A stretch of 64,000 nt of DNA, from the NCBI GenBank assembly GCA_021413445.1, contig JAIOQI010000021.1:47871-111870 (forward strand), written 5' to 3'. This document shows, in pieces, positions 6,535 to 59,182 of the stretch (within the stretch, counting starts at the first letter, position 1; every line of letters begins with the position of its first letter). The notes beneath the pieces were generated by a model. That model saw only the letters and a list, made by a program, of their open reading frames with translations. It did no database searches and had not been told where the DNA came from. The position numbers and the translations under genes are program-made. The DNA is from Alphaproteobacteria bacterium. Lineage in GTDB: Bacteria > Pseudomonadota > Alphaproteobacteria > Micavibrionales > UBA2020.

Positions 6535-8220
6535 ATGGGTTCTGTTGCTTTTAAAAACCCCGCTAAGGCGGAAATGCCCTGGCTCAAAAGCTATCCGGAA
6601 GGCGTGGCCTGGGATCTCCAGGTGCCTGCAACGCCGCTGTTCGCGTTTCTCGAGCAAACAGTGGCAAAATACGGCAGCCACGACGCCATTCACTTTGCCG
6701 GCCATGTCTATACTTACAGCGCGCTGGGCGACCTGGTTGACCGTGCGGCGGCGGGGCTGCAGGCTTTAGGCGTCAAAAAAGGCGGCAAAGTCGGCCTCTT
6801 CATGCCGAATTCGGCTTATTCCGTCGTGATGTACTACGCGATTCTGAAGTCCGGCGGCACGGTGGTGAACTATAACCCCGTCTATGCCGAGCGCGACCTG
6901 ATTTCCCAGGCCGAGGACAGCGAAACCGACATCCTGGTGACACTGGACGTCCCCGCCATCCTCGACAAGGCGACCGCGCTGCTCGACCAGACCCGCATCA
7001 ACAAACTCATCGTCTGCCCCTTCAAGCAGGACATGGCCGCGACCACCAGGACGCTCGAGCTGCCGGGCGATCCCGCTTCCTTTGTCTGGTTCTGCGACCT
7101 GATCGCCAATCCCGGCAAGCCCGCCCCGTTCGCTATCGACTTCGAGAAGGACATCGCGGTGCTGCAATACACCGGCGGCACCACCGGCACGCCCAAGGCG
7201 GCCGTCCTGACGCATAAAAACGTCGTGGCCAACGCGCTCCAGATCAGCAAGTGGTACCACAACGCCGAGAACGGAAAAGACAGCATGGTCGCAATCCTGC
7301 CGCTGTTCCACGTCTTCGCGATGACCGTCATCATGAACATGTCGCTGATGCGCGGCCTCAAGCTTTTTATCATGCCGCAGTTCGACATGAAGGAGATGCT
7401 GCACCTGATCCAGACGGAAAAGCCCAGCTACCTCTGCGGCGTCCCCACCATCTTCATGGCGCTGGCCAGCTATGACCGCATCGCCGAATACGACTTCTCC
7501 TCGCTGAAATTCTGCCTCTCCGGCGGCGCGCCCCTGCCGAACGAAGTTAAAAACGCGTTCGAAAAGAAAACCGGCGCTTCCCTGCTGACGGAAGGCTACG
7601 GCCTGACCGAAGCCTCGCCGGTCGTCACCTGCAACCCGCTGTCGCCCAAAGCGCGCGGGGGCTCGATCGGTCTGCCCATGCCGGGAACGGTCGTGGAAAT
7701 CGTCAGCGCCGAGGACGGCGTGACGGTGCTGAAACCCGGGGAAAAAGGCGAAGTTTGCGTGACCGGACCCCAGGTAATGCCGGGCTACTACAAAAAGCCG
7801 GAAGAGACTGCCAAAGTCCTGAAAAACGGCCGCCTGCACACCGGTGATGTCGGCTACATGGACACGGACGGTTTTGTCTATATCGTCGATCGCATCAAGG
7901 ACCTGATTTTGGTTAGCGGCTACAACGTCTATCCGCGCCATGTCGAGGAAGCCATTTACAGCCACCCGGCGGTGAAGGAATGCATCGTCGCCGGCGTGCC
8001 GGACAAGCTGCGCGGCGAAGTGCCTTACGCCTGGGTCAAGCCCATCGACGGCAACCCGCTCGACGCCGACACGCTGCGCGCCTTCCTGAAGGACAAGCTG
8101 TCGCCGACCGAGATGCCGAAGAAAATCATCGTCCGCGACGAGCCGCTGCCGAAAACGGCGGTCGGCAAGCTGTCCAAAAAGGACTTGCTGGCGCAGGAAG
8201 GGTACCTGAAAACGGTATAA
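6535..8220 (+). CDS. Long-chain fatty acid--CoA ligase (FadD-like), copy 2 (tandem paralogue)
   Basis: It shows the same motif set (LQYTGGTTGTPKAAVLTHKN, GYGLTEASP, TGDVGYMDTDGFVYIVDRIKDLI, PKTAVGKLSKKDLL). It is colinear with copy 1 and starts 18 nt downstream of it. Confidence 0.85.
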   Translation: MGSVAFKNPAKAEMPWLKSYPEGVAWDLQVPATPLFAFLEQTVAKYGSHDAIHFAGHVYTYSALGDLVDRAAAGLQALGVKKGGKVGLFMPNSAYSVVMYYAILKSGGTVVNYNPVYAERDLISQAEDSETDILVTLDVPAILDKATALLDQTRINKLIVCPFKQDMAATTRTLELPGDPASFVWFCDLIANPGKPAPFAIDFEKDIAVLQYTGGTTGTPKAAVLTHKNVVANALQISKWYHNAENGKDSMVAILPLFHVFAMTVIMNMSLMRGLKLFIMPQFDMKEMLHLIQTEKPSYLCGVPTIFMALASYDRIAEYDFSSLKFCLSGGAPLPNEVKNAFEKKTGASLLTEGYGLTEASPVVTCNPLSPKARGGSIGLPMPGTVVEIVSAEDGVTVLKPGEKGEVCVTGPQVMPGYYKKPEETAKVLKNGRLHTGDVGYMDTDGFVYIVDRIKDLILVSGYNVYPRHVEEAIYSHPAVKECIVAGVPDKLRGEVPYAWVKPIDGNPLDADTLRAFLKDKLSPTEMPKKIIVRDEPLPKTAVGKLSKKDLLAQEGYLKTV

Positions 8221-8222
8221 GC

Positions 8223-8837
8223 CTACTTCGGGTTTAACCCGTATTTCTGGGGATTATCTTTAAAAACCTGGCAGAGGTCTAAAGAAGAAAGCCCGCTGTT
8301 TTTTGCCTTGGCGCAAAAGCTTTTGAAATCTTCCAGCGGCATGTCCAGAAGGGCTTCGTTGTTAGTTCCCGCGAACGGCGGGCGCTGGGCGGCGGCGTTG
8401 AATTTTATTTTGATGCTTTTTCCGCTTTTCGACCTGCCTGTTTCATAGTGTTCCGCACTGGCAATATTTACCTCCGGAAAGTCATGGACAACAACGCTAT
8501 TCGTGTTTTCCCTGCGCAAGAGAGCTCTCATATTAAGATGCAATGAAATGACGGCGCTGCCGGTGACGTTCCGCAAGTCAAGGACGGGTTCGCGGAAATC
8601 CGGGGTATAGATTTTTTTCTCCAAATCTTCATGAGGAAGCGCCACGGCGATCTTCATGCCGGAGCGAAGAATGAGGGTGGAGCGCTTTTCCCCCGCTCCC
8701 ATCACGCCCTCCACGGCGGCTATCGAAAAGCTGAAGGGGAGAAAAGTTGTGCCGTCTTCATCCGGCACCCAGACGCGGATCAGCCGCTCACCGGCATCGC
8801 GGGAGAGGAAATTACTCTTGGGGGAAAAATCGTTCAT
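8223..8837 (-). CDS. Hypothetical protein, member A of a tandem paralogous pair
   Basis: 204 aa with no family recognised. It shares blocks with the upstream gene: IAVALPxxxLxxxIYxPDF, RRxxxNxV..DFxE..IAS, G.RSK.G.S..I.FNA, DMP..DF and LDLC..F..NP..YG..P. Its start overlaps the stop of member B in an ATGA arrangement. Confidence 0.6.
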   Translation of the reverse strand: MNDFSPKSNFLSRDAGERLIRVWVPDEDGTTFLPFSFSIAAVEGVMGAGEKRSTLILRSGMKIAVALPHEDLEKKIYTPDFREPVLDLRNVTGSAVISLHLNMRALLRRENTNSVVVHDFPEVNIASAEHYETGRSKSGKSIKIKFNAAAQRPPFAGTNNEALLDMPLEDFKSFCAKAKNSGLSSLDLCQVFKDNPQKYGLNPK

Positions 8838-9499
8838 GCTGGATCAAACCCGTACCGGTTGGGGTTCGCCACAAACAGGCTGCAAAGGTCCAGCTTCGCC
8901 AGGCCATTTTTCTTCGCATTGACGAGTTCTTTCATGAAGTCCGCATACGGCATATCAATATGGTGGGTGGCATCCTTGCCGAAGGGTGTTTTTGCCAAAG
9001 CATTAAAAATTATTCTGACCGAATGGCCGGTTTTAGACCGGGTGCCGGACTCATCGGAATAAGAGGCGATGTCGCTCTCGGAAAAATCAAAACCAACCGC
9101 GTTATTGCTGCTTCCCCTGCGCAGGATGGCGCTGATGACCAGGCCTGACTTCGAGGGGGCATTGAATTCATCCGCCAGTTTCGGCACCAGGACATCCTTA
9201 ATAGCCGGCCCGGTGAACGGCTTCAGATCCAAAAGTGAAGCCTGCCTGAAATCCGGTTCGTAAATCATCCGGTTGAGTTCCTGATAGGGGAGCGCCACCG
9301 CAATGGTCACATTGTTTTTCAGGACAAGGGCGGAAACCTTGTCGCTCACATCCATCACATAAGAAATTTCCCCGGCCCGGAAAAGGATAGTGCGAATAAC
9401 TCCGACATTGTTTTTTTCAGGCACCAACGCCTCAATCCGCAGATCCGAGGCATCAAGAGAAATGAAGCGCATGACATGGTCCTTATTTTCCATGTTCAT
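8834..9499 (-). CDS. Hypothetical protein, member B of a tandem paralogous pair (start may be the second ATG at 9493)
   Basis: 221 aa and colinear with member A across the blocks listed for that gene. No family was recognised. Confidence 0.6.
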   Translation of the reverse strand: MNMENKDHVMRFISLDASDLRIEALVPEKNNVGVIRTILFRAGEISYVMDVSDKVSALVLKNNVTIAVALPYQELNRMIYEPDFRQASLLDLKPFTGPAIKDVLVPKLADEFNAPSKSGLVISAILRRGSSNNAVGFDFSESDIASYSDESGTRSKTGHSVRIIFNALAKTPFGKDATHHIDMPYADFMKELVNAKKNGLAKLDLCSLFVANPNRYGFDPA

Positions 9500-9528
9500 A
9501 AGTTAAGGTAAGCTGGCTGTTATGTCAA
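9500..9528 (-). promoter_or_regulatory. Candidate sigma-70 promoter abutting the start codon of paralogue B
   Basis: The minus strand reads TTGACA (9528-9523), then 17 nt, then TAACTT (9505-9500), followed immediately by ATGAACATG. Confidence 0.35.
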
Positions 9529-9556: not shown

Positions 9557-10441
9557 TTAGTCTGGCCAACGGCGGTGAATCCACAGCCATTGCTCGGGCC
9601 GCTCGCGAATCCAGTTTTCGAACTGGCGGTTGATTTCGGTCAGGATCGCGCGGGTATCCTGCTCCTTGTCCCCGGAGCGGGGAATCTCCAGGCGCGGATA
9701 AACCGTGATTTTAAACCGGACGCCGCCCAGACGCTCGATGCGCACCGGCAAGACCTGGCACTCAAAGCGCAGCGCAAAACTGGCGATAGCGGGCGCGGTC
9801 ATGGCCGGACGCCCGAAAAAAGATATCGCCATGCCCTCATTCAGCTTCTGGTCCATCATGATGCCCAGCGCGCCTTTGTTTTTCAGCACTGTCAGCATCT
9901 CCCGCGCGCCCGCCGCGCCCTTCGCGATCAGGCCGACCGAGCCGGTGCCGCGGGCATAACGCAGCAGCCCCTCGACGCCGGGATTATTGGGGCGGCGATA
10001 AACAGGATAGACGTTAAACCCGGCGCGTTTGACGCCGATCGAGCAGATCTCCCAATTGGCGAGATGCGCCGCAAAAAACATCACCGGCCCGCCGCCCGCC
10101 CGCGCCTTATCCAGGTTTTCTTTTCCCGCCAGCTCGACATAGTCCCAGATGCGGTGAAGATGCGCGTATTCCGCCAGCACGCGCCCGAGGTTATCCCACA
10201 TCCCGGCGACGATTTTTTCGCGCTCGTCTGCGCTTTTCCCGGGAAAAACCCGCGCCAGGTTTTTACGCGCCACCGCCGAAGACGGCAAATGCGGCCCGAT
10301 GCTGCGGCAAATCCACCCGCTGAAGCCGGAGGCCGCCCTGATCGGCAGCAGGCGGAAAAAAGCATAGAGGATATAAACCAAAACGGTTTCCAGCGCATAG
10401 CGCAGCCGCCGCAATAGTGGTTTTTTTTGCGTATCGGTCAT
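9557..10441 (-). CDS. Lipid A biosynthesis late acyltransferase (LpxL/HtrB family)
   Basis: 294 aa with an N-terminal membrane anchor and FFAAHLANWE, which is the HX4(D/E) acyltransferase motif. The overall LpxL-like layout and position next to lpxK and waaA support the call. Confidence 0.8.
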   Translation of the reverse strand: MTDTQKKPLLRRLRYALETVLVYILYAFFRLLPIRAASGFSGWICRSIGPHLPSSAVARKNLARVFPGKSADEREKIVAGMWDNLGRVLAEYAHLHRIWDYVELAGKENLDKARAGGGPVMFFAAHLANWEICSIGVKRAGFNVYPVYRRPNNPGVEGLLRYARGTGSVGLIAKGAAGAREMLTVLKNKGALGIMMDQKLNEGMAISFFGRPAMTAPAIASFALRFECQVLPVRIERLGGVRFKITVYPRLEIPRSGDKEQDTRAILTEINRQFENWIRERPEQWLWIHRRWPD

Positions 10442-18007: not shown

Positions 18008-18901
18008 TTACGGCTTCGCTTCCGATGTGCCTTTATTGTTCGGTTTAACCCCGTCATTGGCGGGTTTCGCCAGCGGCTTGGCCAGCGTTTTGCCCAGGGT
18101 TTGTATCTGGCTCAGGATGTCGCTGGAATTGCTGGTGGTGATGATGACATTGCCGTTCTTCGCGGCATCGCGCAGGGTGTCGTTTGCCATCGCCAGCAGG
18201 ATGGTTTGCTGCGCCATTTCCTCGGTCAGCCCCTGTGCAGACAGTTTGTTGAACTGTTCGGCATAGTTTTTGAAGATGGCGCTGCGCTGTTCGGCGACGC
18301 CTTCGCCGTCCAGGCGCAGTTCTTCCTTGCGGCCTTCGGCGCGGAGGATAGCCGATTTCTTTTCCGCCTCGGCGTTATTGAGTTTCGCCGTTGCTTCGCG
18401 CTCGCTCGCTTTGACGTTGTTGTAAGCGGTCTGGATTTCCGCCGGGGCCTGCGGCTCATCGACGATGACATCGACGATCTTGACGCCATAGAGGTCTTCG
18501 ATCTCCTTGCCGACCTTTTCGCGCACCTGCTCGCTGAGGAGTTCACGCGCCTGATAAAGCTCGGCGAAGTCCATTTTGGAGGTCAGCTGCTTCATGGCCG
18601 CGGTAATGCGCGACTGGACCTGTTCATCGGGATTGTTGGAGTTGTAGTGATATTTCTTGCTGTCAAAAACCTGCAGGTGCATCTTGATCGGGATGGTGAC
18701 GAAAATATCGTCCTTGGTTTTAGTCCGGAGATCGTCGCGGCTCTGATAGATCTCGGTGGAGACGCGCTTGGCGATGGTTTGAAAAGGCCACGGCAGCTTC
18801 ACTTTCAGCCCGGCCGCCGTAATGGTCTTGACGTATTTGCCGAAGCTTTCGATAATCAGTTCTTCTTTTTCGCCGACAGTATAAATAAAAGCCATTATCA
18901 T
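18008..18901 (-). CDS. SPFH/Band-7 (prohibitin-like) domain protein
   Basis: 297 aa. The N-terminal SPFH-like segment reads ESFGKYVKTITAAGLKVKLPWPFQ...DDIFVTIPIKMHLQV, followed by a long coiled Ala/Glu-rich region. Confidence 0.8.
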   Translation of the reverse strand: MIMAFIYTVGEKEELIIESFGKYVKTITAAGLKVKLPWPFQTIAKRVSTEIYQSRDDLRTKTKDDIFVTIPIKMHLQVFDSKKYHYNSNNPDEQVQSRITAAMKQLTSKMDFAELYQARELLSEQVREKVGKEIEDLYGVKIVDVIVDEPQAPAEIQTAYNNVKASEREATAKLNNAEAEKKSAILRAEGRKEELRLDGEGVAEQRSAIFKNYAEQFNKLSAQGLTEEMAQQTILLAMANDTLRDAAKNGNVIITTSNSSDILSQIQTLGKTLAKPLAKPANDGVKPNNKGTSEAKP

Positions 18902-18938: not shown

Positions 18939-18967
18939 GAAGTAGATCAAAGCAAAGCTTATGTCAA
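18939..18967 (-). promoter_or_regulatory. Candidate sigma-70 promoter for the SPFH gene
   Basis: The minus strand reads TTGACA (18967-18962), then 17 nt, then TACTTC. The -10 element is weak. Confidence 0.3.
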
Positions 18968-58686: not shown

Positions 58687-59118
58687 TTATTTTTTGAGCA
58701 GAACAGGCGCCGGTGATTGCGGGGCGGTCGCTTTCGTTACTTTCGTGATAAAGTAATCGGTGTCCGCAAAACGAGGGCGATGGTTCCATACTTCTTTATA
58801 GTGCAGCTTGACGCGGTCGCCGTTTTCCTGGGCTTCCTGAAGCTGCCTGACAAGCGCTGTATCTGCGTCCTTCACCGTAAATTCAAAAGAGTTGGAAGTG
58901 CTGCCGTCTTCGCCGGAGCTCTTGAAGTTATCCATCGCCAGTTCACCCTCCCAGGATTTGTTAAAAAACCCTTTGTAGGAAAGCTTTGTAACCGTCCCGA
59001 CGCGGTCGCCTTCGGAGTAAGGATCGGTCGTGTCATTGCTGCAGCTTTGCATGGCGCCGACGGAGGTCACGAGAGCCGCACCAAGAACCAGTTTGTTAAA
59101 AAGATTGCGCATACTCAT
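58687..59118 (-). CDS. Hypothetical lipoprotein (143 aa)
   Basis: It has a signal peptide and lipobox LVTSVGAMQSC. The RBS AGGAGAAAAAAA precedes the ATG. No family was recognised. Confidence 0.55.
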   Translation of the reverse strand: MSMRNLFNKLVLGAALVTSVGAMQSCSNDTTDPYSEGDRVGTVTKLSYKGFFNKSWEGELAMDNFKSSGEDGSTSNSFEFTVKDADTALVRQLQEAQENGDRVKLHYKEVWNHRPRFADTDYFITKVTKATAPQSPAPVLLKK

Positions 59119-59153: not shown

Positions 59154-59182
59154 AAACTATCATGTAGTGCAGTTTATGTCAA
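59154..59182 (-). promoter_or_regulatory. Candidate sigma-70 promoter for the lipoprotein gene
   Basis: The minus strand reads TTGACA (59182-59177), then 17 nt, then TAGTTT (59159-59154). Confidence 0.35.

Follow-up and report, generated by a model that had tools for sequence, protein, structure and literature searches.

What two small, related genes of no recognized family do beside the lipid A genes of an alphaproteobacterium is the question raised by positions 8,223 to 9,499 of the DNA analyzed here. The whole stretch (the window) comprises 64,000 nucleotides of contig JAIOQI010000021.1, from the genome assembly of an Alphaproteobacteria bacterium. The two genes, A and B, are located in it as follows:

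8834..9499, minus strand: gene A, longest open reading frame (ORF) of 221 amino acids, encoding a two-module (N+C) protein
8223..8837, minus strand: gene B, 204 amino acids, a paralog of A whose start overlaps the A stop codon as ATGA

The analyses described below placed A and B in a protein family that we rate as new. Their proteins are built from copies of a single beta-rich module, and proteins with this N+C architecture occur in one uncultured alphaproteobacterial lineage only, where their genes almost always lie just after the lipid A genes. Our tentative reading is that the proteins are binding adaptors linked to late Kdo2-lipid A assembly (Kdo, 3-deoxy-D-manno-oct-2-ulosonic acid).

A first-pass annotation of the window, made from the sequence alone, had described A and B as related, translationally coupled minus-strand genes of no recognized family that could encode a heterodimeric module of two-domain proteins, and had raised the hypothesis that they are PilZ- or YcgR-like proteins that bind cyclic diguanylate (c-di-GMP). 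The relationship between the genes was confirmed, since both ORFs were found, the proteins share 36% identity across 211 residues (BLASTP, E = 3e-41), and all the sequence blocks that had been listed as common to them are present. The ATGA overlap was also confirmed in the sequence. The same overlap is found at six of the eight junctions between tandem genes of the family, across lineages, and with this coupling of tandem paralogs a heteromeric module remains a reasonable candidate. Orthologs of A and B on other contigs are 60–81% and 55–77% identical to them, respectively, and the ratio of nonsynonymous to synonymous divergence (dN/dS) with respect to the orthologs in the related locus L001 is 0.20 for A and 0.19 for B (0.11–0.14 for neighboring genes). 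Because of these orthologs and of a dN/dS of about 0.2, A and B are real genes on which purifying selection acts.

A and B fit no family described so far. Pfam, NCBIfam and PADLOC contain no match to either protein at E ≤ 10. Comparison with PHROGs produced only noise (E 0.015–0.35), as did PDB sequence searches, whether a single protein, the profile of the family or that of a module was the query. Eight relatives of A and five of B came out of 5.8 billion proteins in a word-indexed search, all of them named 'hypothetical', and the NCBI copies of these relatives come from a metagenome-assembled genome (MAG) labeled 'Alphaproteobacteria bacterium'. When 1.84 billion cluster representatives were searched exhaustively with a profile, 141 clusters were identified at E ≤ 0.001, including 32 at E ≤ 1e-30, and the sole name found in any source for 10 diverse family members was 'hypothetical protein'. 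Lcl_C/DUF1566 was the only Pfam domain detected in family members, as N+Lcl_C fusions in 24 of 125 proteins (26 at a relaxed threshold). The relaxed Pfam scan of the same 125 members showed no recurrent weak family other than Lcl_C and Fib_succ_major, both in fusion proteins. A genome scan with the family alignment found no relative, two scans of viral contigs found no relatives of the A/B family, and literature searches found no account of such genes beside lpxK or lpxL. Because every test of membership in a known family failed or gave no clear match, we rate the A/B family and its domain as categorically new at both the protein-family and the domain level.

Three features had been missed in the first-pass annotation: the homology between the N- and C-terminal parts of each protein, the lipid A operon as the conserved partner of the pair, and the promoter that belongs to the array of family genes. 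The first of these concerns the following modules:

9200..9451, minus strand: N module of A, residues ~17–100; five strands, a helix, then the 'LDL' strand
8837..9145, minus strand: C module of A, residues ~119–221; homologous to the N module by hhalign
8550..8789, minus strand: N module of B, residues ~17–96
8226..8540, minus strand: C module of B, residues ~100–204; hyper-divergent, and mosaic with respect to the L001 ortholog

Comparison of the N and C modules by hhalign gave a probability of 97.4% (E 1.6e-11, 80 columns), and independent, smaller alignments gave 94.2% (E 1.1e-7). Because the two are homologous, each protein is an internal duplication of one beta-rich module of ~95 residues, and the gene pair encodes four copies of it. 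When domain hidden Markov models (HMMs) were applied to 153 family proteins, 83 had the N+C arrangement, 62 had only N, four were N+C+C and another four had only C. Confident AlphaFold2 models agreed with the two domains proposed earlier. That of B has a predicted local distance difference test score (pLDDT) of 92.4 and a predicted template modeling score of 0.75, that of A has a pLDDT of 79.8, and both consist of two packed beta-rich modules, with a disordered linker between them in A. In both models the module has five strands, a helix of 9–13 residues, the short 'LDL' strand and a short helix. The near-invariant positions of the family are mostly hydrophobic, with the addition of D91, R127 and D204, and inspection of the conserved positions revealed no catalytic constellation. 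No array member has a signal peptide or a transmembrane segment, and many members carry C-terminal tails rich in lysine, arginine and proline.

Neither model had a Foldseek match in the PDB below E 0.01. The hits that recurred were tandem proteins similar to pleckstrin homology (PH) domains (Spt16M, Pob3/SSRP1, Rtt106 and BBS5) and PTB/PH domains, followed by the bacterial PH domains 3hsa and 3dcx (E 1.4; DUF1696) and a LytTR domain. TM-scores were ~0.2–0.3, and the tandem PH hits had E values of 0.014–0.4 with probabilities of at most 0.38. Tandem PH-like proteins such as Rtt106 and the FACT domains Spt16M and Pob3M and the bacterial PH domains thus gave the best, although non-significant, hits for both models. 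The resemblance lies in two consecutive modules, each a beta sandwich plus a helix, that pack against each other. There are also clear differences, since the E values extend over 0.014–1.4 with root-mean-square deviations of 7–17 Å, the helix of A and B stands before the last strand while that of a PH domain ends it, and the A/B family has no Pfam PH or bPH match. The weak matches lean toward a PH-like fold, and we assign no fold. If the family is confirmed, it will represent a new protein domain, to which nothing in Pfam, NCBIfam, PADLOC or the PDB is related by sequence and for which even a model with a pLDDT of 92 has no significant counterpart among PDB folds. Its significance is limited by the fact that all carriers are uncultured and their taxonomic range is narrow.

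The hypothesis that A and B are a divergent pair of PilZ/YcgR-like c-di-GMP receptors has a basis in their architecture. YcgR-like proteins are tandem PilZ derivatives (PF07317 + PF07238), in PilZN a short helix separates beta5 from beta6, and lineage-restricted PilZ-like domains without the motifs are known (10.1101/814665). A and B are similar to YcgR-like proteins in size (about 200–250 amino acids), in their two small beta-rich domains derived from a tandem duplication, in the short helix found late in the modeled module at the place of the PilZN helix, and in that both are cytoplasmic and non-enzymatic. However, the HMMs of PilZ (PF07238), PilZN/YcgR (PF07317), YcgR_2 and PilZ_2 did not match A or B at E ≤ 10, and PilZ-family HMMs matched none of the 125 family members even at E ≤ 1. 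The block that had suggested the hypothesis, RRxxxN...(D/N)IAS, keeps only one arginine: in 60 N+C members, R127 is present in 57, R128 in six, D143 in 35 and S146 in 23, and there is no conserved glycine. The full-length, C-module and N-module profiles were compared by hhalign with E. coli YcgR, a query sequence validated beforehand against 5y6f_A, and the probabilities were 0.1–0.2%. No PilZ or YcgR structure appeared in the top 50 Foldseek hits of either model. As for the flagellar cluster that had been used as a clue from context, flagellar genes are near the pair in the window and L001 only; in other lineages UvrA, SSB or Ank genes are found instead, and the conserved neighbors are the lipid A genes. 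HMMs, motif, profiles and context all led us to reject the PilZ/YcgR identity, with at most a very remote similarity of barrels left, and we regard a receptor pair of this type as extremely improbable. Of the earlier interpretation, the paralogy, the coupling, the lack of a family, the two domains and the candidate heteromer stood and the PilZ/YcgR identity did not.

The lipid A genes are located upstream of A, on the same strand:

9557..10441, minus strand: lipid A acyltransferase (Lip_A_acyltrans, lpxL), Pfam PF03279
10443..11441, minus strand: LpxK, Pfam PF02606
11438..12754, minus strand: Kdo transferase WaaA, Pfam PF04413

Two convergent genes for AMP-binding acyl-CoA synthetases are found downstream of the pair, and FlgH is ~3.7 kb away. 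Pfam thus supported the setting between fatty-acid activation and lipid A genes, with flagellar genes at ~4 kb, that had been described for the pair. The order waaA-lpxK-acyltransferase followed by the array is shared by the window and L001, L007–9, L011–13, L015–17, L038–40 and L119, and lpxK is the gene immediately before the array in L010 and L118. In L002 and L003 the acyltransferase gene precedes the family gene, and the contigs end just upstream, which places lpxK and waaA outside the view. L004 is the sole exception among the N+C lineages with DNA: other genes lie upstream of its array, which kept its own promoter and the convergent acyl-CoA synthetase gene. Same-strand adjacency to waaA-lpxK-lpxL, the property by which a gene was counted as part of the Kdo2-lipid A cluster, was therefore found except in L004. 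This adjacency, or direct adjacency to lpxK, holds in about 10 lineages despite changes in the flanking genes and LpxK identities of 43–65%.

The distribution of the family was defined by fetching 80 lpxK loci from species-representative genomes with an LpxK alignment. Three of them carry the family. Their LpxK proteins are 61–62% identical to that of the window, and the carriers are uncultured alphaproteobacterial MAGs, one of them a complete chromosome of 3.3 Mb. The family is absent from the other 77 alphaproteobacterial lpxK loci, in which LpxK identity is at most 49%. In these 77 genomes lpxK and lpxL are commonly adjacent and the genes that follow vary. Because of this variability and of the lack of the family in these loci, the sequences indicate that the family genes were appended to an ancestral operon in one clade.

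The N+C array consists of a single gene in L002/3 and L119, two in most lineages and three in L007, L040 and L118. In a neighbor-joining tree A and B are each other's closest paralogs and group with the last genes of arrays elsewhere, the first genes representing older, deeper classes. Because of this grouping, tandem paralogs have arisen or been retained repeatedly, and arrays of two or three recur in lineages whose pairs go back to separate duplications. In L015 an N+C+C protein of 338 amino acids is followed by a gene that encodes only an N module (116 amino acids, 9014–9364), which could reflect truncation of a copy or a rearrangement of domains.

The array is preceded by a promoter of its own:

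9500..9528, minus strand: sigma-70-type promoter of the array; -35 TTGACA (9528..9523) followed by TAA, 17-nt spacer, -10 TAACTT (9505..9500)

The sequence TTGACAT(A/T)A with a 17-nt spacer and TAnnnT lies directly 5' of the first family gene at 18 of 19 loci, including L004. TTGACAT(A/T)A occurs once per locus, with one extra copy in L017, while control loci contain about one per 118 kb. In the lpxL-A interval no terminator-like site was detected. In the window, the motif TTGACATAA-N14-TAnnnT has three matches, against 0.22 expected. The other two copies, at 18959–18967 and 59174–59182 on the minus strand, precede an SPFH/Band_7 gene (18008..18901) and the gene of a 143-aa lipoprotein (58687..59118). 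A role of TTGACATAA as a special operator was rejected, and since the motif also precedes the SPFH and lipoprotein genes we read it as a strong sigma-70 consensus promoter. The -10 hexamer of the array ends 6 nt before the ATG at 9493, a geometry that L001, L002, L004 and L017 share, and Met3 of A is invariant among orthologs. Because of these two facts, A probably starts at this second ATG (219 amino acids) and would be translated from a leaderless mRNA. The longest ORF begins elsewhere (9499), as does the protein called by NCBI (Met10, 212 amino acids).

A strong, conserved promoter that also drives SPFH and lipoprotein genes, a build of repeated modules, paralogs made in fixed proportion and the absence of a catalytic signature are what would be expected if A and B were abundant, self-assembling structural or scaffold proteins that form a cytoplasmic polymer or lattice of repeat modules unrelated to lipopolysaccharide. 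We found no evidence of polymerization, though, nor similarity to known cytoskeletal or scaffold families, and the mosaic, variable C modules described next are unexpected in a lattice protein. We consider this explanation very unlikely.

The modules differ in how they evolve. Between lineages, family proteins are only 18–33% identical, as compared to 43–65% for LpxK. Nucleotide identity between the window and L001 is 80–95% over 8 kb of synteny, with a trough of 54–64% exactly at the C module of B. In this module the proportion of synonymous differences (pS) is 0.775, i.e., saturated, while it is 0.40–0.51 in the other three A/B modules. Across lineages the N modules share 65–80% identity. 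Identity between C modules is bimodal (45–86%), with classes of ~80% or ~50% that are incongruent between A and B and also incongruent with the N modules. Because of the trough, the saturated pS and the incongruent classes, the C modules behave as exchangeable alleles. Gene conversion from A to B was considered as the cause of the divergent C module of B and rejected because the B C modules of the window and L001 are about equally far from the A C module (~42–43%). A diversity-generating retroelement (DGR) acting on A or B was also rejected, as the window contains no reverse transcriptase and no template repeat.

DGRs are nonetheless linked to distant relatives of A and B. In L024 (4141–10541) and L030 (4482–11138), six Lcl_C/DUF1566 paralogs and an Ank protein are encoded next to an RVT_1 reverse transcriptase gene, in an array that also adjoins the gene of a 1795-aa helicase/methylase. 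The paralogs have different N-termini (the N module, a signal peptide plus Sel1, another sequence, or none). Their C-terminal ~100 nt differ from an AAC-rich copy close to the reverse transcriptase gene at 19–27 positions, 12–16 of which are adenines. These adenine-biased mismatches together with the adjoining reverse transcriptase gene identify the locus, by its sequence, as a DGR, and DUF1566 is a known class of DGR target (PMC5758913). As it is fused to DGR-diversified Lcl_C domains, the N module can act as an invariant handle for a hypervariable domain that binds ligands. DGR variable proteins of this kind (DUF1566/Lcl_C, CLec2, class 'd', e.g., Legionella LdtA), among which distant relatives of A and B have the N module as their invariant N-terminal part, are similar to A and B in combining a constant N part with a variable C part. 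They differ in that a second module copy occupies, in A and B, the place of Lcl_C, a domain that A and B lack. In addition, the C part of A and B would vary by allelic exchange and not by retrohoming, and LdtA-type targets carry lipoprotein signals that are absent from A and B. The mosaic C modules may thus represent a design of constant handle and variable specificity that was reached without a retroelement. An N module that is the invariant handle of DGR-diversified lectin-like proteins without signal peptides would offer an entry into the localization of cellular DGR targets. A solitary N+Lcl_C gene (P0052) was found in L014 (99–8738); its neighbors are a Wadjet-like JetABCD cluster and a gene for LigD, and neither lipid A genes nor a reverse transcriptase are present within 8 kb of it.

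This pattern of variation is part of the case for the main rival to a role in lipid A assembly, ahead of the scaffold and then of the PilZ-type receptor. A and B could be conflict-related binding proteins (immunity, decoy or sensor proteins directed at molecules of phages or competitors) or host-interaction factors, with a variable C module that tracks a changing target and an adjacency to lipid A genes that is only historical. The fast evolution in comparison with LpxK, a copy number from 1 to 3, the mosaic C alleles with saturated synonymous divergence, the strong promoter of the array, the reuse of the N module in DGR-diversified lectin-like proteins, where it is the handle, and the basic, proline-rich tails all point in this direction. 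So does the GC content at third codon positions (GC3), which is 62–63% in the pair and 73–82% in its neighbors. On the other hand, the chromosomal position is fixed and inheritance seems vertical across the clade, and no toxin, nuclease, secretion or mobile-element gene is adjacent. The lack of PADLOC hits, the noise-level PHROGs results, the absence of relatives in viral contigs and an overall dN/dS of ~0.2 also argue against this explanation. On balance, we think it unlikely.

The reading that we prefer, still tentatively and at less than even confidence, is that A and B form a hetero-oligomer that serves as a soluble, non-enzymatic binding adaptor linked to late Kdo2-lipid A assembly, its N handle being constant and its C specificity part variable. 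Transcription would start at the strong sigma-70-type promoter of the pair and probably yield a leaderless mRNA. Because the genes are translationally coupled, the two proteins would be made in fixed proportion, and their most likely product is a hetero-oligomer in which four modules are presented. The N module is the constant part and would be a 'handle' for docking or oligomerization, and the C module is the variable part and would set specificity. As the array has remained next to waaA-lpxK-lpxL across one alphaproteobacterial clade, its products would most likely act at the cytoplasmic face of the envelope, together with the late steps of Kdo2-lipid A assembly or on them. A more specific version proposes a clade-specific cytoplasmic accessory complex of these steps, i.e., a scaffold or a chaperone of lipid intermediates that works with LpxK, WaaA and LpxL. 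Its N copy would be a universal docking handle, reused elsewhere for DGR-hypervariable lectin-like domains, and its C copy an exchangeable specificity module whose allelic swapping tunes envelope biogenesis. Stated in such detail, the proposal is distinctly unlikely.

Several observations weigh against a lipid A adaptor. Fast evolution, varying copy number, mosaic alleles and a lower GC3 are unusual for accessories of an essential pathway. The array has its own promoter and in L004 lies apart from the lipid A genes, so the linkage may be historical and not functional. The loci that support it are not fully independent observations, since most of those that bear the family have a wider synteny (RsmD ... 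UvrA) in common. We infer the oligomerization of A with B only from the coupling of their genes, and the single copy found in two lineages (L002/L003 and L119) indicates that a heteromer is not obligatory. Finally, no membrane-binding feature was found in A or B, and since none of the fold matches is significant, the binding role suggested here lacks a structural precedent.

The lipid A pathway is among the best-studied essential pathways. To our knowledge, hardly any accessory factors specific to a clade have been described for its late cytoplasmic steps, and if the adaptor reading is true a conserved, strongly expressed, non-enzymatic partner encoded just after waaA-lpxK-lpxL would be a concrete new lead.

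Some additional features of these loci were recorded. In most lineages that bear the family, although not in the window, a conserved, unannotated pair of genes (~230 and ~390 amino acids) lies between rsmD and waaA. It was found in L007 (413–4252), where it is duplicated, and upstream of waaA in L008, L011, L015, L017 and L119. The L007 proteins have hydrophobic N-termini that resemble signal peptides, and no Pfam family was recorded for them. In the window (8218–8225), only 2 nt separate the end of gene B (8223) from that of the convergent acyl-CoA synthetase gene (8220), and as a consequence any terminator of either gene must lie within the coding sequence of the other. The GC content of the A/B pair (51–52%) is lower than that of the surrounding housekeeping genes (57–62%), as is its GC3, despite an apparently vertical inheritance within the clade. 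An Rfam scan of the 64-kb window detected no family at the gathering threshold. The window as a whole has a GC content of 57.7% and the appearance of an ordinary alphaproteobacterial chromosome in its gene content, with ORFs that were read by eye as mnmG-rsmG-parAB, holA, lptE, leuS, mnmE and mreBCD.

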